Of a stretch of DNA of 64,000 nt, positions 848 to 63,970 are shown piece after piece; position 1 is the stretch's first letter; each line of letters starts with the position of its first letter. The stretch is from Acidobacteriota bacterium (lineage in GTDB: Bacteria > Acidobacteriota > Holophagae > Thermotomaculales > Thermotomaculaceae). Where the stretch lies: NCBI GenBank assembly GCA_013151025.1, contig JAADJC010000061.1, positions 25,419-89,418 of the forward strand, given 5' to 3'. Under the pieces are notes generated by a model. It searched no databases, was not told the origin of the DNA, and saw only the letters and a program-made list of their open reading frames with translations. Position numbers and translations under genes: made by a program.

Positions 848-1792
848 ATGAAGGTTTTTATCACAAAACGAATCCCGGACACAGGAATCCAATTCCTCCG
901 GAACAAGGGATATGAAGTGGTAATTCGGGACAGGGGTGGATTAATTTCTGCAGAAGAGATTGTCCACGGTATACGGGATTTCGACGGCATGATTTCCATG
1001 TTATCCGACCCCATCGGGGCCGACGTACTGGCAGAGGTCAAGAAATGCCGAATTATTGCCAACTACGCGGTGGGAACCAACAACATCGACATAAAAACGG
1101 CAAAAAAACTGGGCATCACCGTAACCAACACACCGGACGTGCTGACAGAAGCAACTGCGGAGCTGGCAATGACATTGCTGCTGACTGCCTCCCGCCGTGT
1201 CGTGGCGGGAGATCGGTTTGCAAGGGAAGGGAACTTTCAGGGCTGGGAGCCCCTCCTTTTCCTTGGAAAAGGACTGGACGGAAAAACCGTGGGGGTTGTC
1301 GGCATGGGCCGCATCGGGCGGGTTTTTGCCCGGATGGTGTCCGGCTTCAAAGCGCATGTGATATACCACTCCCGCACGAAACAGGACGTCTCCTACCCTC
1401 TTGTTGATTTTGACACCCTGCTGAAAGAATCCGACTTCATCTCATTGCATCTGCCATTAGCACTGGAATCCCGTCACATGTTCACTGAACATCAATTCAA
1501 CAAAATGAAAAATGGCGTCGTTTTTATCAACACGGCAAGGGGCCCCATTGTCCGGGAAAAAGACCTTGTGGCAGCACTGAACTCAGGAAAAATCTCCTTC
1601 GCCGGGCTGGATGTCTACGAATTTGAACCGGAAATCACCGAAGAACTGAAAAAAATGGACAACGTCGTACTCCTGCCACATATCGGTTCCGCCACCGAAA
1701 AAGCCCGAAACCACATGGCCATTCTCGCCGCCCGGAACATCGACGCGGTGCTGAAGGGGGAAGCACCGCTCACAGCGGTGCAGGTTGAGTAA
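848..1792 (+). CDS. D-isomer-specific 2-hydroxyacid dehydrogenase (glyoxylate/hydroxypyruvate reductase-like)
   Basis: NAD-binding GVVGMGRIGRVFA motif, NTPDVLTEATAEL, a catalytic PHIGSAT-type motif, and a typical 314-aa length. Confidence 0.85.
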   Translation: MKVFITKRIPDTGIQFLRNKGYEVVIRDRGGLISAEEIVHGIRDFDGMISMLSDPIGADVLAEVKKCRIIANYAVGTNNIDIKTAKKLGITVTNTPDVLTEATAELAMTLLLTASRRVVAGDRFAREGNFQGWEPLLFLGKGLDGKTVGVVGMGRIGRVFARMVSGFKAHVIYHSRTKQDVSYPLVDFDTLLKESDFISLHLPLALESRHMFTEHQFNKMKNGVVFINTARGPIVREKDLVAALNSGKISFAGLDVYEFEPEITEELKKMDNVVLLPHIGSATEKARNHMAILAARNIDAVLKGEAPLTAVQVE

Positions 1793-1952
1793 AGAGTGGG
1801 AATCTTCCAATGATTGCCCATGGCCAACTCCCTGATTTCATACCCTCTTCCCATCCCAGGGAGACACACCCCGAAGTACGTTGAATCTTTTCTTTCCAGA
1901 ATCATGGATTGTGCTAAAATCAGGGAAATTCTTCTGAAGAAAGGAGTGGATT

Positions 1953-3383: not shown

Positions 3384-3427
3384 CTAACATCTAACATCTG
3401 ACATCTGACATCCGGCGCACTGCGCCG
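3384..3427 (-). repeat. Gene-end hairpin plus 4 tandem heptads
   Basis: CGGCGC-ACT-GCGCCG (3413-3427) lies 4 nt downstream of the pilT-like stop. In the transcription direction it is followed by GATGTCA GATGTCA GATGTTA GATGTTA (3384-3411). Confidence 0.8.
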
Positions 3428-3431
3428 CAAA

Positions 3432-5954: not shown

Positions 5955-6004
5955 ATAAAATAGAAGGGCCGGGAATAAAGCACCCCAGGCCCTGATTTAT
6001 ATCG

Positions 6005-8405: not shown

Positions 8406-9266
8406 ATGGGAAAAAGCCTGTTAATTTTCGACGTGGAGGATAGCTTGAATCAAGATGAAGTGAAACGATTAAAAGCATTGGCCCGGAAGTTCAGAAGAGA
8501 AATCGTGGAAATGGTATACACCGCCCAGTCAGGCCACCCCGGCGGATCCCTGTCCATTATTGACATTTTAACCTACCTGTTTTTTCACGAAATGAAATAT
8601 CCGGTAAAAAACCGGGATGTTTTTTCGACAGACCGCCTCGTGATGAGCAAGGGACACGCGACCCCTGCCCTCTATTCCTGCCTCGCGGAAAAAGGGTTTT
8701 TCCCTGAAGCGGAATTGAAACGCTTTCGCCAGATTGATTCCATCCTTCAGGGGCACCCTGAAAATGAATTTGTCCCCGGCGTTGATGTAACCACCGGTTC
8801 CCTTGGGCAGGGATTCCCACAGGCGGTGGGAATGGCACTGGGTATGCGTCTGGCCGGATCCGACAAGCATGTATTTGCCATTATGGGAGACGGCGAATGC
8901 CAGGAAGGCATTATCTGGGAAGCCGCCATGTCCGCCGGCCATTACAAAACCGACAAGCTCACAGCGGTAGTAGATCTCAACGGGCTCCAGATTGACGGTA
9001 ACGTGAAAGATGTGATGAATGTCAACCCCGTTCCGGACAAGTTTGCCGCATCTCACTGGCATGTCCAGGAGATTGACGGCCACGATTTTAACGAAATTGA
9101 CAAAGCGGTCCGGACCGCCCATGCTGTAACAGATAAGCCATCCGTCATTATTGCCCACACCGTTAAAGGAAAAGGAGTTTCCTTTATGGAAAACAACTAT
9201 AAATTCCACGGTTCTCCCCCCAATGACGAACAATTCAAAATCGCCATGAAAGAGCTGGCCCCATGA
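8406..9266 (+). CDS. Transketolase, N-terminal (TPP-binding) subunit
   Basis: SGHPGGSLS, GDGECQEG and GLQIDG motifs. ATG 8406 is the first plausible start. TTG 8445 has a much better SD (GGAGGA, 5-nt spacing) and may be the true start. The ORF-track start at 8175 overlaps maeB. Confidence 0.85.
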   Translation: MGKSLLIFDVEDSLNQDEVKRLKALARKFRREIVEMVYTAQSGHPGGSLSIIDILTYLFFHEMKYPVKNRDVFSTDRLVMSKGHATPALYSCLAEKGFFPEAELKRFRQIDSILQGHPENEFVPGVDVTTGSLGQGFPQAVGMALGMRLAGSDKHVFAIMGDGECQEGIIWEAAMSAGHYKTDKLTAVVDLNGLQIDGNVKDVMNVNPVPDKFAASHWHVQEIDGHDFNEIDKAVRTAHAVTDKPSVIIAHTVKGKGVSFMENNYKFHGSPPNDEQFKIAMKELAP

Positions 9267-12363: not shown

Positions 12364-12410
12364 CGGCGCGTTGCGCCGAGTGTTGAATGTTAAATGTTAA
12401 ATGTTAAATG
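12364..12410 (+). repeat. Gene-end hairpin plus tandem heptads
   Basis: CGGCGC-GTT-GCGCCG starts on the nucleotide after the ftsX stop. It is followed by GTGTTGA then AATGTTA x3. Confidence 0.8.
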
Positions 12411-12543
12411 AAAGACAAATCAGAGACAGGGAACCAGAATTGAAGATTGCCGCTTTTCACTTTCCTTTTCCTTCTCCTCTCCCCCATTCATCACTTAACA
12501 CTCAAAATTTTACACTCGATGCTGCGCATTGTCCTGTCGTCCC

Positions 12544-12569
12544 TCAATTCGATTCGGAAATCGAATTGA
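12544..12569 (+). repeat. 11-bp perfect hairpin, copy 1 (TCAATTCGATT-CGGA-AATCGAATTGA)
   Basis: Paralogous to 34717-34742 with two compensatory base-pair changes. The CCC flank upstream and the A-run downstream are conserved. Confidence 0.8.
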
Positions 12570-12572
12570 AAA

Positions 12573-12598
12573 AATCAGGGACTTGGCCATTCCCCGCC
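12573..12598 (+). repeat. AATCAGGGA-loop-TCCCCGCC module
   Basis: AATCAGGGACTTGGCCATTCCCCGCC, near-identical to 53644-53667. Confidence 0.75.
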
Positions 12599-12605
12599 TT
12601 TTGAA

Positions 12606-12646
12606 CCATCCACCATTTACGATTCACTATCCACAAAGGCTATGCC
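12606..12646 (-). repeat. Heptad array (CCATCCA CCATTTA CGATTCA CTATCCA) plus weak GGC-TAT-GCC hairpin
   Basis: Paralogous to 53691-53726, which has 3 heptads. Inverted relative to the 12364-12410 unit. Confidence 0.6.
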
Positions 12647-16079: not shown

Positions 16080-16131
16080 GGTTGAGTGCCGGGAAAGATG
16101 TGAAAAAGCAGGGAACTTGTCATTCCCCACC
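16072..16131 (+). repeat. AAGGTTGAG(GTTGAG)T module fused to a GGGAA-CTTGTCA-TTCCC hairpin module
   Basis: Tandem GGTTGA x2 contains the TGA stop of the preceding gene. Homologous to 18823-18863 and to the reverse complement of 53581-53613. Confidence 0.7.
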
Positions 16132-16215
16132 TTTCGGAAAGCGGGATACAGGCACCTGGGAAGTTGCCAGTCCCCGCTTTCCGAGTTCCAAACTATCCAC
16201 GGCGCCTTTGCCGCC

Positions 16216-18822: not shown

Positions 18823-18863
18823 AAGGTTGAGTCCGGATAAGATTCAGAAAAGGCGGGGAAAGA
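18823..18863 (+). repeat. AAGGTTGAGT module copy
   Basis: AAGGTTGAGTCCGGATAAGATTCAGAAAAGGCGGGGAA. By eye, roughly 80 percent identical to the reverse complement of 53581-53613. Confidence 0.7.
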
Positions 18864-22389: not shown

Positions 22390-22487
22390 GGAAGCGAATG
22401 GGGGCTGGTGTCTCCCCCGGTCTTCAAAACCGGTGGGCCTTTGCGGAAGTAAAGGTCGGTGGGTTCGATTCCCACACGCTTCCGCCA
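22390..22487 (+). tRNA. selC: tRNA-Sec (anticodon TCA), CCA encoded
   Basis: GGAAGCG.../...CGCTTCC-G-CCA acceptor. 6-bp D stem with a 4-nt TGGT loop. Anticodon loop CTTCAAA. Long variable arm (GGCCTTT...AAAGGTC). T arm GTGGG-TTCGATT-CCCAC. 98 nt. Confidence 0.85.
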
Positions 22488-22657: not shown

Positions 22658-22734
22658 TGGGGTGGGCGAGGAGGCTTGAACTCCCGACCACTGGAGCCAC
22701 AATCCAGTGCTCTACCAACTGAGCTACGCCCACC
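22658..22734 (-). tRNA. tRNA-His (GTG) with G-1
   Basis: The reverse complement is GGTGGGCGTAGCTCAGTTGGTAGAGC...CTGGATTGTGGCTCCAG...CGCCCACCCCA. Confidence 0.95.
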
Positions 22735-22752
22735 ACATGAGATGTCAAAGAA

Positions 22753-22829
<77 letters not shown>

Positions 22830-22847
22830 TCATGTCTTCGGGTCGAA

Positions 22848-22924
<77 letters not shown>

Positions 22925-34560: not shown

Positions 34561-34603
34561 CGGCGTATTGCGCCGGATGATAGATGTTGAGTGTAAGGTG
34601 GAA
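34561..34603 (+). repeat. Gene-end hairpin plus heptads
   Basis: CGGCGT-ATT-GCGCCG lies 23 nt after the stop, then GATGATA GATGTTG AGTGTAA GGTGGAA. Confidence 0.75.
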
Positions 34604-34701: not shown

Positions 34702-34716
34702 CATGTCCGCCATCCC

Positions 34717-34742
34717 TCAATTCCGTTCAGAAACGGAATTGA
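34717..34742 (+). repeat. 11-bp perfect hairpin, copy 2 (TCAATTCCGTT-CAGA-AACGGAATTGA)
   Basis: See 12544-12569. Stem positions 8-9 are swapped together with their pairing partners. Confidence 0.8.
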
Positions 34743-34766
34743 AAAAACACCGGAAAGAAAAAGGAA

Positions 34767-34805
34767 AAATCAGAGGATGGCCCATTAACAGGTCATTTCC
34801 CCACC
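34767..34805 (+). repeat. Diverged AAATCAG...TTTCCCCACC module
   Basis: The termini of the module are conserved. The internal stem is replaced by ATGGCC/GGTCAT. Confidence 0.5.
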
Positions 34806-34921
34806 AAGTACCCGATTTCGAAGCTGTCCATCCCGGTTATTTTTCCTGCCAGTCTTTACTTTTTCAGGCCCGCTTTTTCCTTTCCTGCTTTTCTTCTCCA
34901 CTCTTTTTCTGTCCTTTGTAT

Positions 34922-34977
34922 CTTTTCTGACCTTTGTGGCCTTGTGACTTTGTGTTAAGTTCTGCTCTGCTTCTCTG
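34922..34977 (+). repeat. CTTTGTG-type octamer word array
   Basis: TTTTCTGACCTTTGTGG...CTTTGTGTTAA recurs as the reverse complement of 57901-57965 (identical blocks of 17 and 11 nt). Confidence 0.75.
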
Positions 34978-35134
34978 ATTCTCTCCCTCTGTGCCCTCTG
35001 TGTACTCTGCGGTGAAAATTCCTATCTTTTTTCCTCTTTCCCGACATCGCTGACTTTGTCTTATTGACTGGTGGAAACTATTCAACCACTTGCCCGTATA
35101 ATTTAATCGGATTTGAAAATTCCGGAGGGAGCCA

Positions 35135-39509: not shown

Positions 39510-39582
39510 GGGTTGGAAGCAGAAAAATCAGGGATTTAGTTAGGCCTGCTCTGGTTTTATATGAACATACACCTTCCTCAAA

Positions 39583-39606
39583 GCGGGGACAGATATCTTC
39601 TGTCCC
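39583..39606 (-). repeat. GGGACAGA-loop-TCTGTCCCCGC hairpin module (inverted copy)
   Basis: 8-bp stem at 39586-39606. The reverse complement ends in ...TCCCCGC like the other copies. Confidence 0.6.
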
Positions 39607-43973: not shown

Positions 43974-44438
43974 TCACGGCTTCAGCCTTACAACCCATGC
44001 CCCACTACCCCCAAACTTTTTAGGCGCCTCAGCGAACCACAGCAACCATTGGCGCCCTTCACCCCTCAACCATTTCCTCACATAATCCCGTAGCACACCC
44101 TTCTTCTCAGAATGGTGACCCTTCCCTGTAATCACAAGAACTGTTCGGTCTCCAGCACTTGCTGTTTGTTGAAAGAAACTACGAAGTTCCATGATTGACT
44201 CATCTTTTGTTTTCGTATGAAGGTCTAAGGTGGCATCAATTTCTGGAGAAACGGACTTAGGGAAGCTCCGCTGTAAATTTATAGATTTAGCGATTGCATG
44301 CGGCACCGGTTCTTTTATGGCAGATTTCCCCACACCATTCGCCAAAGCCTGCTCAAAAAGTTCTCGGTCTTCACGTTCTTTTTGTTTCTTATCAGCGAGA
44401 AAAATCTCTTCCCATTCGTCATCTGAAATCTGCCTCAT
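43974..44438 (-). CDS. Smr-domain protein
   Basis: LDLH...VLVITGKGHHS...LRDYVRKWL is the Smr/MutS2 C-terminal nuclease fold signature. Confidence 0.8.
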   Translation of the reverse strand: MRQISDDEWEEIFLADKKQKEREDRELFEQALANGVGKSAIKEPVPHAIAKSINLQRSFPKSVSPEIDATLDLHTKTKDESIMELRSFFQQTASAGDRTVLVITGKGHHSEKKGVLRDYVRKWLRGEGRQWLLWFAEAPKKFGGSGAWVVRLKP

Positions 44439-45214
44439 TTCCGCCTCAGAACCAGCACCATCCTCCAGGAATCTCGACTGTTATCCAACGGGTTATCCAG
44501 CTTAAACGAACCTCTGGAATCCACCAGCTCAAACCGTCCGTTGCATTGTATTAACAATCGCATTTCCTGATACAGGTAAATTCGGTATTTGTCGCACATA
44601 TCAATGGAAAGGATTTTCTCTCCATCTTTCACCACAATGTGCGGCGATGATTCTACCTGCTGTGTCAATACGTCCACATCCGTCCGTTCCCGGTCCCAGT
44701 CCACTTCTATCTCAATCTGTCCCCGGGATTCAATCCAGACATTTGTCGTGGATGGCCGATTGGTAATAAAATCCCTGGGATGATTCAGCTCTAAAATATA
44801 AATGCCCCCACTCTCCAGCACGTCTGCAACGTGATCCAGATGAGCGAGGGCATCCTCATTTCGCAACAGATAATTGAAACCTGTTAACAGGTTAATTGCC
44901 GCACCGTACTTTCGGTTGCATGCAAAAGCTACCATGTTATCTATCCAGATGTGTGAATTCAGTTTCTGTGCGTCAACCTTTTCCTTTGCGAACTCAACCA
45001 TTTTCGGGGAAATATCAAAACCATCTACTTCGTACCCGCGAAGCCCAAGCTGCTCCAGATGTGCACCTGTACCGCATGCAATATCCAGCATTGCACTATT
45101 CTCACACAGGCAAAAGAGACTGACCTTCTTTTCTATATAGTCGCATTCAAGATCCACGTCACGATAATTGAACGCAACGTCATAATACTCCGGATAGTCG
45201 TACAGGCTCATCAA
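44435..45214 (-). CDS. Class I SAM-dependent methyltransferase
   Basis: Motif I MLDIACGTG, motif post-I DGFDIS. Confidence 0.8.
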   Translation of the reverse strand: MMSLYDYPEYYDVAFNYRDVDLECDYIEKKVSLFCLCENSAMLDIACGTGAHLEQLGLRGYEVDGFDISPKMVEFAKEKVDAQKLNSHIWIDNMVAFACNRKYGAAINLLTGFNYLLRNEDALAHLDHVADVLESGGIYILELNHPRDFITNRPSTTNVWIESRGQIEIEVDWDRERTDVDVLTQQVESSPHIVVKDGEKILSIDMCDKYRIYLYQEMRLLIQCNGRFELVDSRGSFKLDNPLDNSRDSWRMVLVLRRK

Positions 45215-45243
45215 GTGTTAATTAAAGCGAGAAAGGATGACTT

Positions 45244-45483
45244 CTATTCTTCAATGTCTTCCGATTCTTCTTCCCCTGCCAGATCATTGTCCACATTGAG
45301 ACGATCACATGCGCCGGCATACATTTGCAGTGCAGCTTTTTTGGCCTTTTGCAGGTCTGCAAGTTTTTCTTTTACACGAGCCAATTCTTCTTCCACCTGA
45401 TTCTCGATATCGGCAATTTCATTCCGCAGGTGCTTCCGTGTCTCTTCGTAAAACTTTTTCTGATCATCACTGAGAAATGCCAT
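45244..45483 (-). CDS. Small acidic coiled-coil protein
   Basis: 79 aa, heptad-like E/K pattern, acidic tail EEESEDIEE. Lies 20 nt downstream of the kinase fusion gene. Confidence 0.5.
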   Translation of the reverse strand: MAFLSDDQKKFYEETRKHLRNEIADIENQVEEELARVKEKLADLQKAKKAALQMYAGACDRLNVDNDLAGEEESEDIEE

Positions 45484-45502
45484 AGGTTACCCCCTTAAAT
45501 AA

Positions 45503-48436
45503 TTAAAACACAAACGTATGTGTAAAATAGACTTTAACCCGCACGCCATCTTTCATAGCCGGCGTGAATTTCCATTTACTGAATGCCCGAATCGCTGCCT
45601 TCCCAAAATTGTTGCGTACTTTGACAGAATTCTGAAGTACCCGAACTTCACCGGCAACGACATTACCATTTTCATCAATCAAGCCCTGCACAAGCACTTC
45701 CCCGTGCAGATTCCGCCGCCGATCAATCACAGACGATCTTGCCCTGACTGTTTTTACTGGCGTGGGGAATACGACCTCGCCTTCAATGAGCGCCACCAGG
45801 TCCCCTTCTTTTGTTTTGGGAATAATGGGTTGGGGTATTGGTTTTATTTCTACAGGTTTCTTTACGACCGGTTCAAGGACAGGTTTTTCAACCACCGATT
45901 CTGGCTCCACTGTGGCCGGTTCATTCGTCGTTATACCTGTTGTTTCCTTTGCGGCAGTCTCATTTCCGGATGCCGGCTTCTTTGTAGTTGTTTTACCGGT
46001 ATCAGCTACTTTCGATTCCACTGCTTTAACTTCCGGCTTGGCCGCTTCGACTGCCGCTGGTGTTGTCGAAACAGTCTTTTTCTCTGCAACAACCGTCTTC
46101 TTGACCGGTTTTGGAGTCGATTTTTTCATTTTTTTCTGCTTCTTCAATTTCGCTTCCTCTTCCGCCAACTTCTTCTCCAACAGCTGTTGCACCAACTTTT
46201 CCCTGTCGATGCCCAGCACCGCTGAAGATGTAGTAGAAGCATTCGTCTGTGAGCCTGCAACCCCCTCTCCCTCAGCTTCCTGCCCGGCAGTCGGTGTTGC
46301 TGTCTCACCCTGAACCACAGTCGATGTCGGGGACTCAGGCTCTGTGGCTGTCTGGGTCTGAGGTTTCCGGGTTACCTGCCGGGCCGGAGCCGGTTTACGC
46401 ATCATGGCAAAATAACCGATTACACCAAGTATAATAACCACAACCACAATAGCTACGATTAATCCCGTCTTGTTGCCACCGCTACCACCGCCGAACTGCT
46501 CAATCAATTCGTCCTCATGTTTCTCCACATCTTCCAGATCAGGCATTATCATCGTACCGCTATCCATCTTGACTGTCGCGTTTACGTCCACGTCTTCATT
46601 CAGGTCGTCCAGGGTAAGTGCAGCGGCCGCTTCCTGCTCTGATTTGGGAGTCGGCACTTCAACTTCCTCAGGCTCGACCTCTTCATTCACGGTATACCGT
46701 CGGGAGATCTCTTCAATTGTGTTCATATCCCCCTGGTAGAGCGCATTGACAAACTGAGCAAGTATTCTCTCGTTTACTGCAAAGGGCAAAGATTCCATCA
46801 AGCCGTGAAGTTCTGATTCCATCTCCTTCGCACTCTGGAAACGATTCTCAATTTTTTTGGAAAATGCCTGGCGAATCAGTCGTTCAGTACCCTTGGACAC
46901 ATCCTCGTTCACTTCCTGAATCGGCGTATACTGAACCTTTCTCACTTTTTCCAGGATACTGATTTCACTGTCTGCGAGGAAACATTTTTTCCCGGTGATG
47001 GATTCGTATATCACGGATGCCAGCGAGAAAAGGTCGGAACGGTTGTCAATTGGTTTGCCATAGGCCTGTTCCGGAGACATATAGAGCAACTTGCCTTTCA
47101 GAGCTCCGGCCTGAGTATGGCTGGCTTTTGTGGCTGCCTTCGCAATACCGAAATCTACCAGCTTCACGTCCCCACCCTTTGAAATCAGAATATTCTGTGG
47201 GCTGATATCCCGATGGACAATCTTCAGGTCCTTCATGTCCAGACCTTTTTTCCGGTGCGCGTAATCCAGTGCGCTGAGCATTTTGCTCGCAATAAACAAA
47301 ACAAGCGGCTCTGGAATGCGTATTTTCTTCTTCTTACATTCCTTCAGAACATTACGAAGATCATAGCCTTCTACATATTCCATTGCTATATAGAACGAGT
47401 TTTCAATCTTTCCAAGGTCGTAGATCTGCGCAATATTGGGGTGGTTCAATTGAGCTGCAAGTTTGGCCTCATCAATAAACATCGTTACAAATTCTTCATT
47501 ATCAACAAGATGCGACAAAATTCGCTTAATTGCTACAATTTTTTGAAATCCCTGTACACCCCTTCGTTTCGCCTTGAACAGCTCCGCCATTCCACCTGTA
47601 GCCACTTTTTCCAGAAGCACGTAACTTCCATATTCAATTCCTTCGTTCTTCCCTTTCTTTTTCGATTTGTCTTCTGCTTCTGCTTTTGTTCTTCTTGGCT
47701 CGGGTGTTTCCGACTTTACTTCAACTTCCCGTTTCTTAACTTCAGGCCCCTGATCCAATTCAGGTTTTGGCTTCGGCTCTTCCATGGGCTTCGGAGAAAC
47801 TTCTACAACCGGTTCCTCCTTATGAGTCTCTTTTGCTTCCTTTGCCTTTTCCAGTTCCGCTATTGCCCCTAAATCTCCAGGCGCCTCTTCCACGTCTTTA
47901 ATCACATCACTGAAGATGTCGGATGAAGTAAGTACCGGTTCTTCTGAAGTTTTTTTCTTGTGCGAAATTGATTTCCCACCGGGCATTTTGCCGGACATGG
48001 TTTCTTCAAGGATTTCTTCCAGGCGTCTCCGGGCAGATGCCTTCTTCTTCGGCTTTGCAGGGGGTTCAGACAATTCCATGTACTTCTTAACCAGTGTCTG
48101 GAGTGTTTCATCTTCAAATGGCTCTTCCAGGTATTCCTTTACACCGTACTTGCTTATGGCCTCTGTCCGATAGCGGTTGCCCTTGTACACTGAAGTGACC
48201 ATAATAATGGGCAGGCCGGGATGTTCTGATGTTAATTTCTGAGCCACCTCAAAACCGGACAATTTTGGGAGCATGGGGTCAATAATGGCGAGATCAGGTA
48301 CAAACTCTTCCACAATATCCAATGCTTCAATACCGTTTTTGGCTGTCATAGACTCGTACCCGAGGTCTACGATTAGTTCATTCAGCCTGGAGAGTCGCTT
48401 TGGTTCGTAATTGACAATCAAAACTTTTTTTACCAT
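45503..48436 (-). CDS. REC receiver + Ser/Thr protein kinase + TM + low-complexity spacer + TonB_C domain fusion
   Basis: REC (AIIDPMLP). Hanks kinase motifs (GGMAELFKA, AIKR, HRDISPQNIL, DFGIAKA, SPEQ). TM GLIVAIVVVVIILGVIGYFAMM. P/T/K/E-rich spacer. C-terminus GEVLVQGLIDENGNVV...SKWKFTPAMKDGVRVKV. Confidence 0.85.
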   Translation of the reverse strand: MVKKVLIVNYEPKRLSRLNELIVDLGYESMTAKNGIEALDIVEEFVPDLAIIDPMLPKLSGFEVAQKLTSEHPGLPIIMVTSVYKGNRYRTEAISKYGVKEYLEEPFEDETLQTLVKKYMELSEPPAKPKKKASARRRLEEILEETMSGKMPGGKSISHKKKTSEEPVLTSSDIFSDVIKDVEEAPGDLGAIAELEKAKEAKETHKEEPVVEVSPKPMEEPKPKPELDQGPEVKKREVEVKSETPEPRRTKAEAEDKSKKKGKNEGIEYGSYVLLEKVATGGMAELFKAKRRGVQGFQKIVAIKRILSHLVDNEEFVTMFIDEAKLAAQLNHPNIAQIYDLGKIENSFYIAMEYVEGYDLRNVLKECKKKKIRIPEPLVLFIASKMLSALDYAHRKKGLDMKDLKIVHRDISPQNILISKGGDVKLVDFGIAKAATKASHTQAGALKGKLLYMSPEQAYGKPIDNRSDLFSLASVIYESITGKKCFLADSEISILEKVRKVQYTPIQEVNEDVSKGTERLIRQAFSKKIENRFQSAKEMESELHGLMESLPFAVNERILAQFVNALYQGDMNTIEEISRRYTVNEEVEPEEVEVPTPKSEQEAAAALTLDDLNEDVDVNATVKMDSGTMIMPDLEDVEKHEDELIEQFGGGSGGNKTGLIVAIVVVVIILGVIGYFAMMRKPAPARQVTRKPQTQTATEPESPTSTVVQGETATPTAGQEAEGEGVAGSQTNASTTSSAVLGIDREKLVQQLLEKKLAEEEAKLKKQKKMKKSTPKPVKKTVVAEKKTVSTTPAAVEAAKPEVKAVESKVADTGKTTTKKPASGNETAAKETTGITTNEPATVEPESVVEKPVLEPVVKKPVEIKPIPQPIIPKTKEGDLVALIEGEVVFPTPVKTVRARSSVIDRRRNLHGEVLVQGLIDENGNVVAGEVRVLQNSVKVRNNFGKAAIRAFSKWKFTPAMKDGVRVKVYFTHTFVF

Positions 48437-48610
48437 TTATTACCCCGCCCCAATAAATTGTTTTATTAAATATATCACAGCCCTTCCAAAAATGAAATAA
48501 AAAAAACACACTCACAAGAAAAGGTATCTTTATCCAACTTTTACATTACACAACTAATTGCCTCATCTACTATGGAGTTAATTCTCCGAAGTTTCTGAAC
48601 GCTCTTACTT

Positions 48611-49129
48611 TTACTCTTCCTGCCCACTGGCATACTGAAACAGGCCTCCCGCAGCAACAATATCTGCCTGAACCTTTGAAAAAGAACGCCCATAAAACCG
48701 AGCCCCCTTTTCACCTCTTATCTCTCCTGATTCACTATCCACTTTTACATTGTCCCCGGTTTGGAATCCAGCAACAGATATTCCCGGCGCTTCGAGAATC
48801 GGAAAGGCTGAATTGATCGCATTCCGCTTGTAAATAGCCCCGAATGATTCGGCAATAAGCAAGGCAACCCCCAGTGACTTGAAACAATCCACCGCCTGCT
48901 GACGAGATGACCCCGCACCGAAATTCCGACCTGCAATCACAATGTCCCCGGATCGTGCTTTTTCTGCAAAATCTTTCCACCCGGCCAGGTTGTCCAGCGC
49001 ATATTGCCCCATTTTTGCAATGTCCGTCTCCGCAAGGTAGCGGTTATGGAAAATCATATCTGTATCAATATCATCAATCAATCTGCCATCCTTGTCTGTC
49101 AACACCCAGATTCTTCCCGTAAAGTTCAT
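48611..49129 (-). CDS. Aconitase-family dehydratase small subunit (LeuD/HacB-like)
   Basis: ~170 aa with GRNFGAGSSRQQA (expected GCGSSRE-type), following the large subunit with a 4-nt overlap. Confidence 0.85.
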   Translation of the reverse strand: MNFTGRIWVLTDKDGRLIDDIDTDMIFHNRYLAETDIAKMGQYALDNLAGWKDFAEKARSGDIVIAGRNFGAGSSRQQAVDCFKSLGVALLIAESFGAIYKRNAINSAFPILEAPGISVAGFQTGDNVKVDSESGEIRGEKGARFYGRSFSKVQADIVAAGGLFQYASGQEE

Positions 49130-50403
49130 AAGACCCCCTCCTCGGCCAGAAAATCTACCGGGTCAGTAATCTTTCCCGTTACTGAGCTAACTGCGGCAAC
49201 GACCGGGCTTGCAAGATATGTATCCCCATCTCCCTGCTTACCGCGAAAATTACGGTTTGAGGTGGAAATCTGAACTTCCCCCTTCCCCGTCATCCCAATC
49301 TGCCCCGAGGCACAACCGCCACAGCCGGGGTTGGAGATAATCACTCCCGCATTGTAGAGTGTCGAAATAGTCCCATCCGCGAGAAGCTGCCCGAAGACAC
49401 CTTTTGTTGCCGGTACTGCTTTTACCATAACTCCCTCATGGACTGGAAACCGGGAAAATATTTTTGCTGCTGCGTGAAAATCCTCTACCCTGCCGTTTGT
49501 GCAGGAACCGATAAAAACAGCATCTACCGGCCTTCCTTCAACCTCTTTCACGTTCTTCACATTGTCAGGTTTCGGCGGACAGGCAATCTGAGGCATCAAA
49601 CCGGAAATATCAATTTCCTCCACACGGCTGTACACAGCGTCATTATCCGGGAATGGCATAGAGACATTGTCCTTACCGGTTACCTTTCGAAAATGAGCCA
49701 GAATCTCCTCATTGGGATAAATAAAGCCAATGATACCCCCCATCTCTGTCACCATGCTGGAAAGCGTAATCCTTTCGTGCATCGTCAGGCTTTCAATCAC
49801 ATCCCCGGTAAACTCAACCGCAGACCCCAGCGCCCCACGGGAACCCATGTGGCGCAAAGTCCACAAAGTCAAATCCTTTGCCGTAACCGGGAATTTATAC
49901 GGCTCACCCTTGAACACGACCTTGATCGTTTCCGGCACTTCAAACCAGGTGCGGCCCGTTTTGAACGCAAAGGCAATATCCGCATCACCCATTCCCTGCC
50001 CGAACGAGCCCACTGCACCCAGGATATTCAAATGGCTGTCGGTACCCACATAGATTGAGCCGGGCCAGCACAACCCCTGCTCAATCGCCACATGGGAACC
50101 GATTCCGGAATCCACGTCAAACACCTTCATCCCTTTCTTTCGGCCAAACACCCGGCAAAGTTGTTGATTGTTCGCGTAAGGGATATTGTTTGCGGGAACC
50201 ACACAATCAAAGGTGAAATAGGTCTTTGAAGGATCAGCCAACTGAACATCCTCTCCGTAAATCGACTCCAGTCTTTTCACCACATTGGGGCCACCGAAAT
50301 CGCGAGCTGTTCGGGTATCAATATCCAGCCATATCACATTCCCCGGCTTCACTTCGTCTGATGAATGATTCATGAAAATCTTTTCAATCACCGTATTTCC
50401 CAT
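49126..50403 (-). CDS. Aconitase-family dehydratase large subunit (LeuC/HacA-like, short archaeal-type)
   Basis: ATG 50403 has a GAGGAG SD. Cluster-ligand motifs GSCTNGR and CGGCASG, and GTDSH. Confidence 0.88.
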   Translation of the reverse strand: MGNTVIEKIFMNHSSDEVKPGNVIWLDIDTRTARDFGGPNVVKRLESIYGEDVQLADPSKTYFTFDCVVPANNIPYANNQQLCRVFGRKKGMKVFDVDSGIGSHVAIEQGLCWPGSIYVGTDSHLNILGAVGSFGQGMGDADIAFAFKTGRTWFEVPETIKVVFKGEPYKFPVTAKDLTLWTLRHMGSRGALGSAVEFTGDVIESLTMHERITLSSMVTEMGGIIGFIYPNEEILAHFRKVTGKDNVSMPFPDNDAVYSRVEEIDISGLMPQIACPPKPDNVKNVKEVEGRPVDAVFIGSCTNGRVEDFHAAAKIFSRFPVHEGVMVKAVPATKGVFGQLLADGTISTLYNAGVIISNPGCGGCASGQIGMTGKGEVQISTSNRNFRGKQGDGDTYLASPVVAAVSSVTGKITDPVDFLAEEGVL

Positions 50404-50512
50404 TTTTTCTCCTCTTGTCAGCTTCCAAACTTCAAAATTCACCCACATTCTACAGGAGAAAAAGGTCAAAGGGAAGAAAGTGGGTATTATACGTGGGCAT
50501 CAGCTTGGAAAA

Positions 50513-50538
50513 GACGGGAAAATGACACATTCCCCGCC
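50513..50538 (+). repeat. GGGAA-AATGACACA-TTCCCCGCC hairpin module
   Basis: Same stem and 3' tail as the 12573, 16105 and 53644 copies. Confidence 0.7.
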
Positions 50539-50615
50539 TTTTTTCTTTGCAAGTTCGGAATTAAAAGTTGCATTGGTGTAATGTAGGGGACCGCACACAA
50601 ACTGGCCGGCTCTAT

Positions 50616-53419: not shown

Positions 53420-53591
53420 GGCACCAGTAAACCATGAAACGCCATTTTACTCAAGTTCCAATCAAGGAAAAAAAGTGGGCGTTATGCATTGCGTGGACGG
53501 CAGAGCGGCCCACAAGGCCGCGTGGATGGCGAATGGTGGCTGGTTCACAGAGGGACAAGAAAGGGAATCGCTCAATTCTCTGCCATTTCCC

Positions 53592-53613
53592 AATCTTATC
53601 AGGACTCAACCTT
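53592..53613 (-). repeat. AAGGTTGAGT module copy (inverted)
   Basis: AATCTTATCAGGACTCAACCTT differs at 1 of 22 nt from the reverse complement of the 18823-18844 copy. Confidence 0.75.
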
Positions 53614-53643
53614 TTCCCTTCAGGCTGGAGTAGAAGTAAGACA

Positions 53644-53667
53644 AATCAGGGAATTGGCCATTCCCCG
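53644..53667 (+). repeat. AATCAGGGAAT-TGGCC-ATTCCCCG hairpin module
   Basis: 6-bp stem GGGAAT/ATTCCC. It is preceded by AAGACAAATCAGGG, which also occurs (13 of 14 nt) at 12412-12425. Confidence 0.75.
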
Positions 53668-53690
53668 TATTTTCACCCCTCTTTTTCCAA

Positions 53691-53726
53691 CCATCCACTA
53701 TTCACTATCCACTGCGGCAAAGCCGC
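53691..53726 (-). repeat. Gene-end hairpin plus 3 heptads
   Basis: GCGGC-AAA-GCCGC starts 1 nt after the DciA-like stop. It is followed in the transcription direction by AGTGGAT AGTGAAT AGTGGAT. Confidence 0.8.
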
Positions 53727-53727
53727 A

Positions 53728-54015
53728 TCACGCATCGCGTCGAAGTCGGACTTGAAGGCGGGATAATCGAAGGGGATAACGATTCAAGGCCCGAACAATG
53801 GTATCTGCTTCCGCACGAAACGCAGCAAAGTATTCTCTTGCCTCAATTTCCACTGTCAATGTACCCCCCACCAGACTGACCGGCTTTCCCCAACTGCATA
53901 CCGGCTCCGGTATTACACGGTTCCACATCATCTTGATGAATTCCAGGGGTGGACACCCCCATTTCAGAAGCAGTTCGGGAGAAATGGTCTTGAAGTATTT
54001 ATCCGTCACGCTCAA
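53728..54015 (-). CDS. DUF721 (DciA-like) protein
   Basis: W..V.....S....L..GTLTVEIE....F..F......I...LN pattern typical of DUF721 (recalled). 17-nt overlap with the upstream gene. Confidence 0.5.
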   Translation of the reverse strand: MSVTDKYFKTISPELLLKWGCPPLEFIKMMWNRVIPEPVCSWGKPVSLVGGTLTVEIEAREYFAAFRAEADTIVRALNRYPLRLSRLQVRLRRDA

Positions 54016-57812: not shown

Positions 57813-57900
57813 ACAATCAGTTTACAGCAAAAGACCCCGAGCTTCAATTGGAGAAATGCCGGGAACCAGACCCACCGCTGAGTACGCCGAGGCCGCTGAG

Positions 57901-57965
57901 GAAGAAGAGAAGATCATTTAACACAAAGGCACGGAACCACAAAGGTCAGAAAAATAGGGGAAGAG
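57901..57965 (-). repeat. CTTTGTG-type word array (inverted copy of 34922-34977)
   Basis: The reverse complement reads TTTTCTGACCTTTGTGGTTCCGTGCCTTTGTGTTAA. Confidence 0.75.
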
Positions 57966-57984
57966 AAGTGATGAGTTCAAAAAA

Positions 57985-58006
57985 CACGGTAATGGCAAAC
58001 TCCGTG
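57985..58006 (-). repeat. Hairpin module copy with a covarying stem (CACGG-TAATGGCAAACT-CCGTG)
   Basis: Aligns to the reverse complement of the GGGAA...TTCCC module (AATGGCCAA loop and a ...GTGATT tail), but both stem arms are changed and still pair. Confidence 0.55.
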
Positions 58007-58157
58007 ATTCTTCTGCCGCCCACATTCACTCCCAACGCCCACTCTGCCAATTAAGTCTAAGTTTAAGTAAAGAACAATAGTTGACAGCTTACTCTCTTTC
58101 CGTGCTCAAACTTAAACTCAAACTCAACCTTGACTCCACTTGCATTCAAATTTTCCC

Positions 58158-58358: not shown

Positions 58359-58889
58359 TTACCAGTTGTTTTGCATTCCCTGACGACCGCCTCTTTTCAT
58401 TCCGCGGTCCATTCTACTGCCATGATGATCCTTCATGTTCATGAACTGCTGGCGTTTGTCCTTTGCGATGTCCAGCAGTTTCTGGCGCTGGTCTTTTGTC
58501 AGCAGGTCGTGGAGTGCCTGAATTTTCTGAGTCATGAACTTCTCCACTTCCACCCGTTTCTGATCCCGCATTTTCTCCCTTTCAACCCGAATGGCTTCCG
58601 CATTGAAGGAATCAGAAACAAATTCATCCATACCTTGGTCCTGCCGGCCTTTCATGGCTTTCACCTGACTTTGCCAGTAGCTTTTAACCTCGGTTAGAAG
58701 TGCGTCCAATTTCTGGTTCTGGGTTTCGTTCAATCCCAGTTCCGGTCGAGCAGCTGCTACCAACCGAAAAAGCATTCCAGTTCGATTCTGCCGAATATTC
58801 GGCCGGTTCTGCCGGACACGTCCCTGGGCTGCCATCAGTGTCCCTGCCACCATTACGATTCCCAATACTGCAATAACTGTTCTTTTCAT
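58359..58889 (-). CDS. Periplasmic Spy/CpxP-family (LTxxQ) protein
   Basis: ATG 58889 has a GGGAGGAAAG SD. Signal peptide. Two LTxxQ-type motifs (LNETQNQKL, LTKDQRQKL). Basic/His-rich tail. Confidence 0.75.
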   Translation of the reverse strand: MKRTVIAVLGIVMVAGTLMAAQGRVRQNRPNIRQNRTGMLFRLVAAARPELGLNETQNQKLDALLTEVKSYWQSQVKAMKGRQDQGMDEFVSDSFNAEAIRVEREKMRDQKRVEVEKFMTQKIQALHDLLTKDQRQKLLDIAKDKRQQFMNMKDHHGSRMDRGMKRGGRQGMQNNW

Positions 58890-58970
58890 TCTTTCCTCCC
58901 TGTTGGCCACGGGGCCTTTTGTTTACATATATAAAATACGGGGAGAGTATGTCGCCACGGTTTCCGCCTT

Positions 58971-58990
58971 GTAACAATTTGTAACAATTT
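58971..58990. promoter_or_regulatory. Perfect tandem direct repeat GTAACAATTT x2 (GTAAC-N5-GTAAC)
   Basis: 82-101 nt upstream of the Spy/CpxP-like start. Resembles an OmpR-family (CpxR GTAAA-N5-GTAAA) site. Confidence 0.4.
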
Positions 58991-59009
58991 CACGCCTGAG
59001 AAGAAATAA

Positions 59010-59057
59010 TGGGTGATGGGTGATTTTTCTATCATTTAACATCCAGCGCAAAGCGCC
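59010..59057 (-). repeat. Gene-end hairpin plus heptad words
   Basis: GGCGC-TTT-GCGCT (minus strand, 59045-59057) lies 18 nt after the ftsZ stop. It is followed by GATGTTA AATGATA ... and TCACCCA x2. Confidence 0.65.
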
Positions 59058-59075
59058 GTCCAAGGGCACTTCCCC

Positions 59076-63870: not shown

Positions 63871-63930
63871 TCAGAAAAAAACCGGACTGCCTGCTCTCTC
63901 TCTTTACTTAAACTCAAACGCGCCTCCTCT

Positions 63931-63970
63931 TCACTCATCACTCATCACCCATCACGCGGCCTCAGGCCGC
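63931..63970 (-). repeat. Hairpin plus heptads (TCACTCA TCACTCA TCACCCA)
   Basis: GCGGCC-TCA-GGCCGC (63956-63970). On the minus strand it is followed by GTGATGG GTGATGA GTGATGA. Presumably the 3' end of the out-of-window gene upstream of murC. Confidence 0.75.

Follow-up and report, generated by a model that had tools for sequence, protein, structure and literature searches.

A Dispersed Intergenic Hairpin Repeat with the Shape of an Intrinsic Terminator in a Narrow Clade of Uncultured Acidobacteria-Labelled Sediment Bacteria

Introduction

Bidirectional intrinsic (Rho-independent) terminators combine an A-run, a GC-containing stem (5–14 pairs), a short loop (3–8 nt), and a U-run, and ordinary terminators are not homologous to one another. 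In Neisseria, DNA-uptake-sequence pairs and Correia elements are conserved inverted repeats that also serve as terminators past the ends of genes, the uptake sequences occurring about once per kb and also inside genes. The BIMEs of Escherichia coli include IHF-binding forms, the IHF consensus being WATCAR-N4-TTR. REP, BIME, and REPIN elements with their RAYT have been described from enterobacteria, Pseudomonas, and Stenotrophomonas (PMC3733652, PMC2817692), and a REP is defined by a GTAG/CGTC tetranucleotide tag at its stem (PMC3733652). Arrays of short intergenic motifs are also on record: the G-rich heptamers GGGNATC of Xanthomonas and Nostoc follow stop codons on the sense strand and precede the next ORF on the antisense strand (PMC4692102), and there are the TAACTGA repeats of Beggiatoaceae (PMC4679880) and the heptanucleotide multicopy elements of Geobacter metallireducens (PMC2700814).

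A preliminary description of 64,000 nucleotides of DNA from an Acidobacteriota bacterium (the whole stretch is called the window here and is numbered from its first letter) reported a hairpin module in most long intergenic regions and likened it to a modular REP/BIME-like system. As far as lifestyle goes, the likeness is borne out. Like REP and BIME elements, the unit is a short imperfect palindrome that is strictly extragenic, multicopy, variable between relatives, and set in mosaic clusters with other motifs; it is modular, shared within a clade, and recombines with other short modules, and REPs have been credited with termination and mRNA stabilization. Membership in the REP/BIME family itself does not follow. 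Unlike in REPs, the flanks of the unit are TAAGAAAAAT and TCTTTTG, no GTAG/CGTC adjoins the stem, and GTAG occurs only inside upstream hexamer arrays at least 10 nt away. Clusters of the unit run head-to-tail, not as the inverted or alternating pairs of REPINs and BIMEs, polar arrays of 6–7 nt flank it, and an A-run and a U-run give it a textbook terminator shape. Neither a RAYT (Y1 transposase, PF01797) nor any other transposase gene was found within the 64-kb window or among 10 tested neighbors of copies in relatives, the neighbors being housekeeping genes.

In keeping with intrinsic terminators, the unit lies past stop codons and in convergent gaps, and its sense strand folds better in three of four clear window copies. 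Unlike ordinary terminators, it has a loop and flanks that are near-invariant across loci and genomes, and it occurs in tandem sets and in some divergent gaps. The arrays found here (GTAGGG, GGGTGAT, GTGGATA, GTTAAAT, and GATGTCA) are intergenic with the same strand placement as the Xanthomonas and Nostoc heptamers; those arrays and the ones of Beggiatoaceae and Geobacter, however, consist of a single motif without a conserved central hairpin, whereas here a hairpin is central. Compared with the Neisseria uptake sequences, the unit is far rarer and never inside genes. A CRISPR array was considered and rejected, as the spacing is irregular (66–178 nt) and the intervening DNA itself consists of repeat modules.

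Results

Genomic Setting

The window is a piece of ordinary bacterial chromosome (48.4% GC), and about 9% of it is intergenic. It carries ftsEX, an AcrB/HlyD efflux pair, trkAH, leuCD-like genes, ruvB, and a sigma-54 activator gene, together with five tRNA genes (one of them tRNA-Sec) and the murC-ftsQAZ end of the division cluster. GC skew across positions 1–64000 is negative throughout (−0.04 to −0.15) despite several switches of gene direction, which places the window within one replichore, with a C-rich plus strand. The tRNA-Sec gene adjoins a His/Arg/Pro tRNA cluster on the opposite strand (22390–22487, 22658–22924), and its presence implies that the organism uses selenocysteine.

Anatomy of the Unit

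The module first noted is the center of a conserved unit of ~40 nt, TAAGAAAAAT-CAGGGAGU-UGGCC-AUUCCCUG-UCUUUUG. As DNA, the consensus of the aligned units is TAAGAAAAAT-CAGGGAGT-TGGCC-ATTCCCTG-TCTTTTG, and an alignment of 22 units gives TAAGAAAAATCAGGGAGTTGGCCATTCCCTGTCTTTTG. The unit has an 8-pair stem, a 5-nt loop, an A-run on one side, and a T-run on the other; in the window the 3' arm reads TTCCCCG. Because the unit is almost a palindrome, the plus and inverted labels previously given to copies are partly arbitrary, and at 50513–50538 the alignment is about equally good in both orientations. Whether copies are compared inside one genome or across genomes, loop and flanks hardly vary, and conservation of the loop and of the unpaired 5' flank equals that of the stem; the conservation of the left half is partly an artifact, since both the search pattern and the covariance model derive from it. 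A subfamily retrieved through the right half reads GCGAAAGAAGGGAGTTGGCC and is without the ATCA element. It had been claimed that the stem arms of two copies were replaced and still pair. This can be said of one good diverged copy (57972–58016, minus strand), where one stem pair is altered on both sides to give a compensatory CACGG/CCGUG stem; covariation is lacking in the canonical family, where 92.4% of cells are paired versus 92.1% in shuffles.

The reported site is a canonical unit on the minus strand at 53637–53680 (covariance model 59 bits, E = 5.6e-9; local-alignment span 53638–53673, score 57, shuffle maximum 28), and it is terminator-like on that strand. Its plus-strand reading is TAAGACAAAT-CAGGGAAU-UGGCC-AUUCCCCG-UAUUUUCACC, and in the gene sense (minus) it reads ACGGGGAAUGGCCAAUUCCCUG and then AUUUGUCUUA. 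The stem-loop proper (53647–53667, minus) has eight pairs, with one G-U on the minus strand, and a 5-nt loop, GGCCA/UGGCC. Following the minus strand, the stop codon (53728–53730) of a 95-aa ORF is succeeded directly by a small GC hairpin, TGCGGC-UUU-GCCGCA (53713–53727), and then, between this stop-proximal hairpin and the unit, by a heptad array (53687–53712; gene-sense GTGGATA GTGAATA GTGGATG GTTGG), a tandem repeat finder reporting period 7 at 53693–53713. Past the unit there is a second diverged copy in tandem (53563–53613, minus; score 24, borderline), made up of a leader AAGGTTGAGTCCTGATAAGATT, GGGAA-17 nt-UUCCC, and UUUCUUGUCCC, after which come a conserved hairpin with a promoter-like region and then trkA. 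The 95-aa ORF (53728–54015, minus) overlaps the end of an FHA-GGDEF gene and has no Pfam match; it is called and conserved in the related loci L077, L079, and L080.

Copies in the Window and Chance Expectation

The exact 10-mer AAATCAGGGA occurs five times in the window, always in intergenic DNA, where 0.32 would be expected and none of 100 shuffles yields as many. There are nine occurrences of TTCCCCRCC against 2.0 expected, six of them intergenic, and six of GGGAA-N3–12-TTCCCC against 1.2. A 37-nt window consensus was aligned locally to 3.8 kb of intergenic DNA, with 300 dinucleotide shuffles as a control (95th percentile of scores 24, maximum 28), and the dispersed intergenic hairpin module proves to be real: seven window copies, all intergenic, score above all 300 shuffles. 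The preliminary description had named two outcomes that would tell against it, namely similarity no better than that of shuffled intergenic sequence and copies unique to the window. The seven copies do better than shuffled sequence, and numerous nearly identical units occur in related genomes.

Window copies were also scored with a covariance model built from units in relatives. The highest alignment score in the window (63, span 12570–12603) belongs to a canonical unit at 12566–12609 (plus; 50.8 bits) between ftsX and a DUF2339 gene, both on the plus strand, with the 11-bp hairpin (12543–12574) before it and a C/A-rich heptad array (12604–12634) after it. The copy GAAAAAGCAGGGAACTTGTCATTCCCCACCTTT at 16102–16134 (minus; score 41) sits in a convergent gap and is terminator-like on the minus strand, and the one at 50508–50542 (minus; score 33) lies downstream of trkH (minus) and upstream of a leuC-like gene. 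More diverged are GCAGAAGAAUCACGGAGUUUGCCAUUaCCGUGUUUUUUG at 57972–58016 (minus; 22.2 bits, E = 0.045; aligned part 57988–58014, minus, score 29; fold −9.8 kcal/mol) in the divergent ruvB/tRNA-Met gap, and a copy at 39519–39566 (plus; 18.4 bits; aligned part 39521–39537, score 29) after an AcrB-family gene, in which the left flank GCAGAAAAATCAGGG is kept, the interior is longer, and the tail ends in CUCUGGUUUU. Directly after the stop of the gene at 848–1792 (plus) is the copy AAATCAGGGAGTTGGCCAT at 1783–1838 (minus; 13.5 bits; aligned part 1820–1838, minus, score 33), with a 19-nt insertion ahead of AUUCCCAC. A terminator-like relative at 5955–5998 (minus), AAATCAGGGCC-17 nt-GGCCCU-UCUAUUUUAU, was picked up as a one-mismatch match to the motif and by the terminator scan; it lies 10 nt past the stop of a malic enzyme/PTA gene. 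Many operon ends of the window have a copy or a remnant (1792, 6005, 12363, 16079/16216, 18790/18934, 39509, 50616, 53728, and 59076).

The list of copies given previously is amended. The clear copies at 12573, 16105, 50513, 53644, and 57985 all rank above the shuffles; 39583–39606 (GGGACAGA/TCTGTCCC), also listed as clear, is not supported as a member by its score, the copy in that gap being 39519–39566. Three sites are borderline at score 26: 16158–16180 and two that had been listed as diverged copies. One of these (18851–18863) is a half-site only, TTCCCCGCCTTTT after a AAGGTTGAGTCCGGATAAGATT leader at 18848–18860 (minus), and the other (34767–34805) belongs to GAAAAATCAGAGGATGGCCCATT...TTTCCCCACC at 34761–34805 (plus; 11.7 bits; aligned at 34764–34786), preceded by the 11-bp hairpin at 34716. 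The remaining diverged copy, 12412–12436, is weak (14.3 bits, E = 1.4) and likewise unsupported as a member. The fixed orders in which the module was said to recombine with others are present, that is, 11-bp hairpin then module, AAGGTTGAGT then module, and hairpin module followed by heptad array and small hairpin; a third instance of AAGGTTGAGT plus hairpin is the tandem copy at 53563–53613 (minus).

A hairpin with loop TTGGCCA at 58898–58914 was rejected as a family member, as it is the conserved 5' UTR/ribosome-binding region of an LTXXQ gene. Just 5' of the probable ATG of this gene (58887, minus), the sequence GGCCCCGUGGCCAACAGGGAGGA (58887–58914), which is kept in L080, might form pairs that span the ribosome-binding site; the GTG listed as the start (58910) probably lies too far 5'. 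Upstream of the same LTXXQ (CpxP/Spy-family) gene, at 58969–58990, a direct repeat TTGTAACAA-T-TTGTAACAA (GTAAC-N5-GTAAC), likewise kept in L080, resembles a CpxR-type response-regulator box.

Distribution in Related Genomes

An exact-pattern scan with the left half, covering one genome per species, gave ~24 matches in three related assemblies; beyond these, there were isolated single matches in genomes that are unrelated. "Acidobacteria bacterium B50_G9" (Guaymas Basin) accounts for most of the ~24, with three in CBEUWV01 and one in a Holophagae-labelled assembly. The B50_G9 assembly has 20 exact matches and about two to three times as many covariance-model hits. Nearly identical units are found in related "Acidobacteria bacterium" assemblies (B50_G9 and three others) and in a few sediment metagenomes, and identical 38-nt units recur in separate assemblies. 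A metagenome scan returned 24 stretches, which come from few samples and for the most part from the one that yielded B50_G9, and a scan of viral contigs returned no match to the unit. Positions 43974–50615 of the window are syntenic with a B50_G9 contig at 60–89% protein identity, and the RuvB of the window has "Acidobacteria bacterium" relatives at 89–93% identity.

With the covariance model, 34 copies were found at E < 1e-3 in 143 kb of related loci, most of which had been selected for carrying the motif, and many of these copies lie outside the search-pattern selection. One 14.5-kb contig carries eight copies in four clusters. The clusters on L052/L069, L044, L041, L001, L008, L042, and L006 have their copies on the same strand, head-to-tail, and 66–178 nt apart. 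No copies were found in 21 kb of L077, a more distant relative (RuvB 89% identical). From incomplete genomes, copy number appears to be in the tens per genome, not in the hundreds. The unit family is restricted to one narrow clade of uncultured sediment bacteria that carry the Acidobacteria label. Its sequence content was described as unfamiliar at the outset, and so it has proved: Rfam returned only tRNAs at the gathering threshold and noise alone at a permissive threshold, and nothing was found in the searchable literature for four versions of the core sequence.

Orientation and Folding

All 42 hits that were checked fall outside credible genes. By gap type, copies occur in 14 of 46 co-directional, 3 of 19 convergent, and 2 of 17 divergent gaps, one of the divergent cases being the window copy in the ruvB/tRNA-Met gap. 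Read in the mRNA sense, the long U-run follows the hairpin in 12 of the 14 co-directional gaps and does not in the other two (two-sided binomial ~0.013), a test for which genes were crudely called as longest ORFs and ORFs overlapping repeats were ignored; within the window, orientation relative to genes is mixed. With AUUUUUCUUA following its stem and loop in one direction and UCUUUUG in the other, the unit has the shape of an intrinsic terminator, and a simple consensus terminator scan picks up unit sites, with folds of −12 to −17 kcal/mol. Neither this A-run/hairpin/U-run anatomy nor the orientation bias had been recognized in the preliminary description.

With C in place of U in the 3' arm UUCCCCG, one strand has an A-C mismatch where the other has a G-U pair. 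The fold is −13.1 kcal/mol on the minus strand versus −7.4 on the plus strand at 53637, −16.7 (z −3.2, 0 of 200 shuffles as good) versus −6.9 at 16102, and −17.5 (z −2.7) versus −12.9 at 50508. These are three of the four clear copies of the window, and each folds better on the strand that is sense for the gene ending immediately upstream, which is consistent with selection at the RNA level; since the strand asymmetry depends on G-U pairing, action in RNA can be argued. The canonical copy at 12566 is in the minority orientation and folds weakly on both strands (−5.6 and −9.0 kcal/mol). Gaps with two to four tandem copies occur, which is beyond what termination needs. Terminators need no fixed sequence, and the near-invariance of loop and flanks together with the lack of stem covariation therefore suggests that something else constrains or homogenizes the sequence.

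Other readings of the unit were tried and rejected. A replication-strand effect is unlikely because unit orientation does not track GC skew. As candidates for a sigma-54 promoter (GG-N10-GC; TGGCAC-N5-TTGC), TGGCCAACTCCCTGA and TTGGCCATTCCCTGT are without a −12 GC at the right spacing, and the spacing, read from the sequence, does not fit a sigma-70 promoter at TTGGCCA.

Flanking Arrays and Other Modules

On whichever strand it is read, the unit usually has G/T-rich arrays of 6–7 nt on its 5' side (GTAGGG, GTGCGA, GTTAAAT, and GATGTTA) and C/A-rich arrays on its 3' side (TCACCCA, CAGAACA, and AATCACA). Upstream flanks are 42% G and 13% C, and downstream flanks are 33% C and 14% G. Loci differ in the sequence of the array unit and agree only in its strand polarity about the hairpin. 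Small GC hairpins stand where C/A arrays switch to G/T arrays or directly past a stop codon. The other modules with which the unit is combined are thus hexamer and heptamer arrays, small GC hairpins, the 11-bp hairpin, and a TACAGGCACC...GTTGCCAGTCCC hairpin. The window arrays are mostly not G-quadruplex-capable. Individual folds of the array arms into long hairpins look good, and a long cognate hairpin from the G/T-rich and C/A-rich arms was considered and rejected: cognate arms fold at −21.9 kcal/mol versus −21.0 for swapped and −21.3 for shuffled arms. As swapped arms pair as well as cognate ones, the pairing is compositional, with exceptions at L001 (1579 and 5566), L028, and L008.

Several further modules were observed. 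A second hairpin family (window 16135–16190, L008, L051, and L064) has a conserved interior TACAGGCACC-N5–8-GTTGCCAGTCCC and an A-run/U-run outer stem that changes on both sides between genomes (GGAAAGCGGG/CCCCGCTTTCC, GCAGAAAGCAGG/CCCTGTTTTCTGC, and GTCAAAGCGGG/CCCCGTTTTTGAC); this may be a further module of terminator-like or structured-RNA type. The 11-bp hairpin at 12543–12574 and 34716–34748 reads CTCAATTCGATT-CGGA-AATCGAATTGAAAAAA and CTCAATTCCGTT-CAGA-AACGGAATTGAAAAAA, respectively, two pairs having changed on both sides, and a search of related loci found it in the window only. A dispersed module of ~100 nt, CCTTTGTGxCCTTGTGxCTTTGTGTTAAAT...CTCxGCGGxxxCxGCGGTGA, occurs at 34921–35034 (plus), at about 57870–57960 (minus), and in many related loci; it is common to the clade and lies upstream of genes in either orientation. 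Hairpins of the GGCGC-loop-GCGCC type are found right past stop codons at 3384–3431, 12364–12410, 34563–34600, 59009–59060, and 63927–63955, followed by heptad arrays (GATGTCA, GTTAAAT, GGGTGAT, and CTCATCA), and this pattern recurs at many gene ends.

Rearrangement at Orthologous Sites

In the gap between the 95-aa ORF and trkA, the cassette of L080 (RuvB 92% identical) aligns with that of the window only when inverted, scoring 53 versus 22 in direct orientation (shuffle maximum 27). Ahead of the LTXXQ gene, a full unit in L080 corresponds to the left flank alone in the window, where it is joined directly to a C/A array. In B50_G9 (L042) and in L080, the gap orthologous to that at window 50508–50542 also bears a core. 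L080 shows a collapsed palindrome, AAATCGGGAATTCCCTGATTT, downstream of trkH; its positions 8694–8729, orthologous to window 50508–50542, form a perfect palindrome, AAATCGGGAATTCCCTGATTTTT, which amounts to two left halves with the loop lost. Copy number also differs, B50_G9 having two units at an orthologous gap versus one in the window, and two assemblies at 79% coding identity share only the first array past the stop codon. Such inversion, deletion, collapse, and change of copy number at orthologous sites is the behavior of a dispersed palindromic repeat.

Discussion

Taking the evidence together, we lean toward the hypothesis that the unit is a clade-specific dispersed repeat with a REP/BIME-like lifestyle whose core is a largely bidirectional intrinsic terminator, and we hold this to be somewhat more probable than its negation. 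Termination is proposed as the likely activity on the basis of the A-run/hairpin/U-run anatomy and the orientation bias. Weighing against it are the near-invariant loop and flanks, the copies in divergent promoter gaps and in tandem sets, the weak fold and minority orientation of the copy at 12566, the inverted cassette of L080 at the trkA site, and the mixed orientation within the window. Once transcribed, the hairpin and its U-run would act as an intrinsic (Rho-independent) terminator, and the hairpin may also block 3' exonucleases. With an A-run and a U-run on opposite sides, the unit would work in either direction, and better with AUUUUUCUUA downstream. The flanking arrays and small GC hairpins would form a variable mosaic around it, and copies may spread and stay alike through duplication, recombination, inversion, or gene conversion, or through some mobilizing enzyme.

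That the copies are simply unrelated terminators, or A/T-flanked GC hairpins that resemble one another by chance, is already refuted for the core set by the seven window copies that exceed all 300 shuffles and by identical 38-nt units in separate assemblies; we give this reading next to no credence, and the weakest of the listed copies (39583–39606, 12412–12436, and 18851–18863), which are no better than shuffles, are what it could account for. The U-tailed hairpin, with its sequence conservation ahead of the stem, could also be the terminator of a trans-acting RNA, the copies being small RNA genes or 3' UTR-derived sRNAs. This seems very improbable to us, for there is no conserved promoter upstream, no Rfam match, the upstream arrays differ wholly between copies, and tandem copies stand 66–178 nt apart with the gaps filled by repeats. 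A binding site for a host protein, either on DNA (of IHF/HU type) or on RNA (a hairpin-loop binder or an RNase processing site), would explain the invariant UGGCC loop and the invariant left flank; the loop and the unpaired 5' flank match the stem in conservation, and AAATCAGGGAGTTG, in a match noticed post hoc, fits the IHF consensus WATCAR-N4-TTR beside an A-run. We nevertheless consider it unlikely: the A-run abuts the motif and is not about one helical turn away, the conservation of the left half comes partly from the design of search pattern and model, and no candidate protein was found. Because the subfamily GCGAAAGAAGGGAGTTGGCC is without the ATCA element, the IHF site is kept as a lead only.

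A selfish, non-autonomous element of REP/REPIN or MITE type, its hairpin being the structure recognized by a RAYT/IS200-like or other transposase encoded once elsewhere in the genome, with termination incidental or tolerated, is a reading we take seriously and still judge to be on the doubtful side. Copies are near-identical without covariation, and even close relatives differ in whether they have them, 21 kb of L077 being without any. At 79% coding identity, orthologous sites still have different modules, copies are present in divergent gaps and inverted or deleted at orthologous positions, and RAYTs are known in Acidobacteria (PMC3733652). Set against this are a stem without an adjoining GTAG/CGTC tag, clusters that are head-to-tail with no inverted pairs, the absence of a transposase from the 64-kb window and the tested neighbors, and flanks in which reading by eye revealed no obvious terminal inverted repeats or target-site duplications. 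The flanking arrays, moreover, differ from copy to copy, which is unexpected under simple copy-and-paste, and the gene-relative orientation bias points to selection on function. More speculatively, the unit could be the recognition hairpin of an undescribed dedicated system of the clade, in which invertible array-hairpin-array cassettes at operon boundaries would be maintained by a new hairpin-specific mobilizing enzyme or by a factor for sequence-specific termination or insulation. Its G-rich arrays, located 5' of the hairpin on the non-template strand and 3' of it on the template strand, would then serve as pause or roadblock elements; we regard so elaborate an arrangement as improbable.

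If the unit is indeed a clade-specific repeat with a terminator core, a clade of uncultured hydrothermal-sediment bacteria would mark many of its operon boundaries with one conserved terminator hairpin, embedded in repeat mosaics that rearrange quickly. REP/BIME-like biology would be extended to a lineage and an architecture, with polar heptad arrays and head-to-tail clusters, for which we found no prior description. The unit would be a sequence marker for transcript ends and for the binning and typing of genomes, and its inversions, deletions, and duplications would form a natural set for the study of how palindromic repeats evolve. It would also provide a test case for dispersed repeats kept as useful terminators versus those kept as mobile elements.
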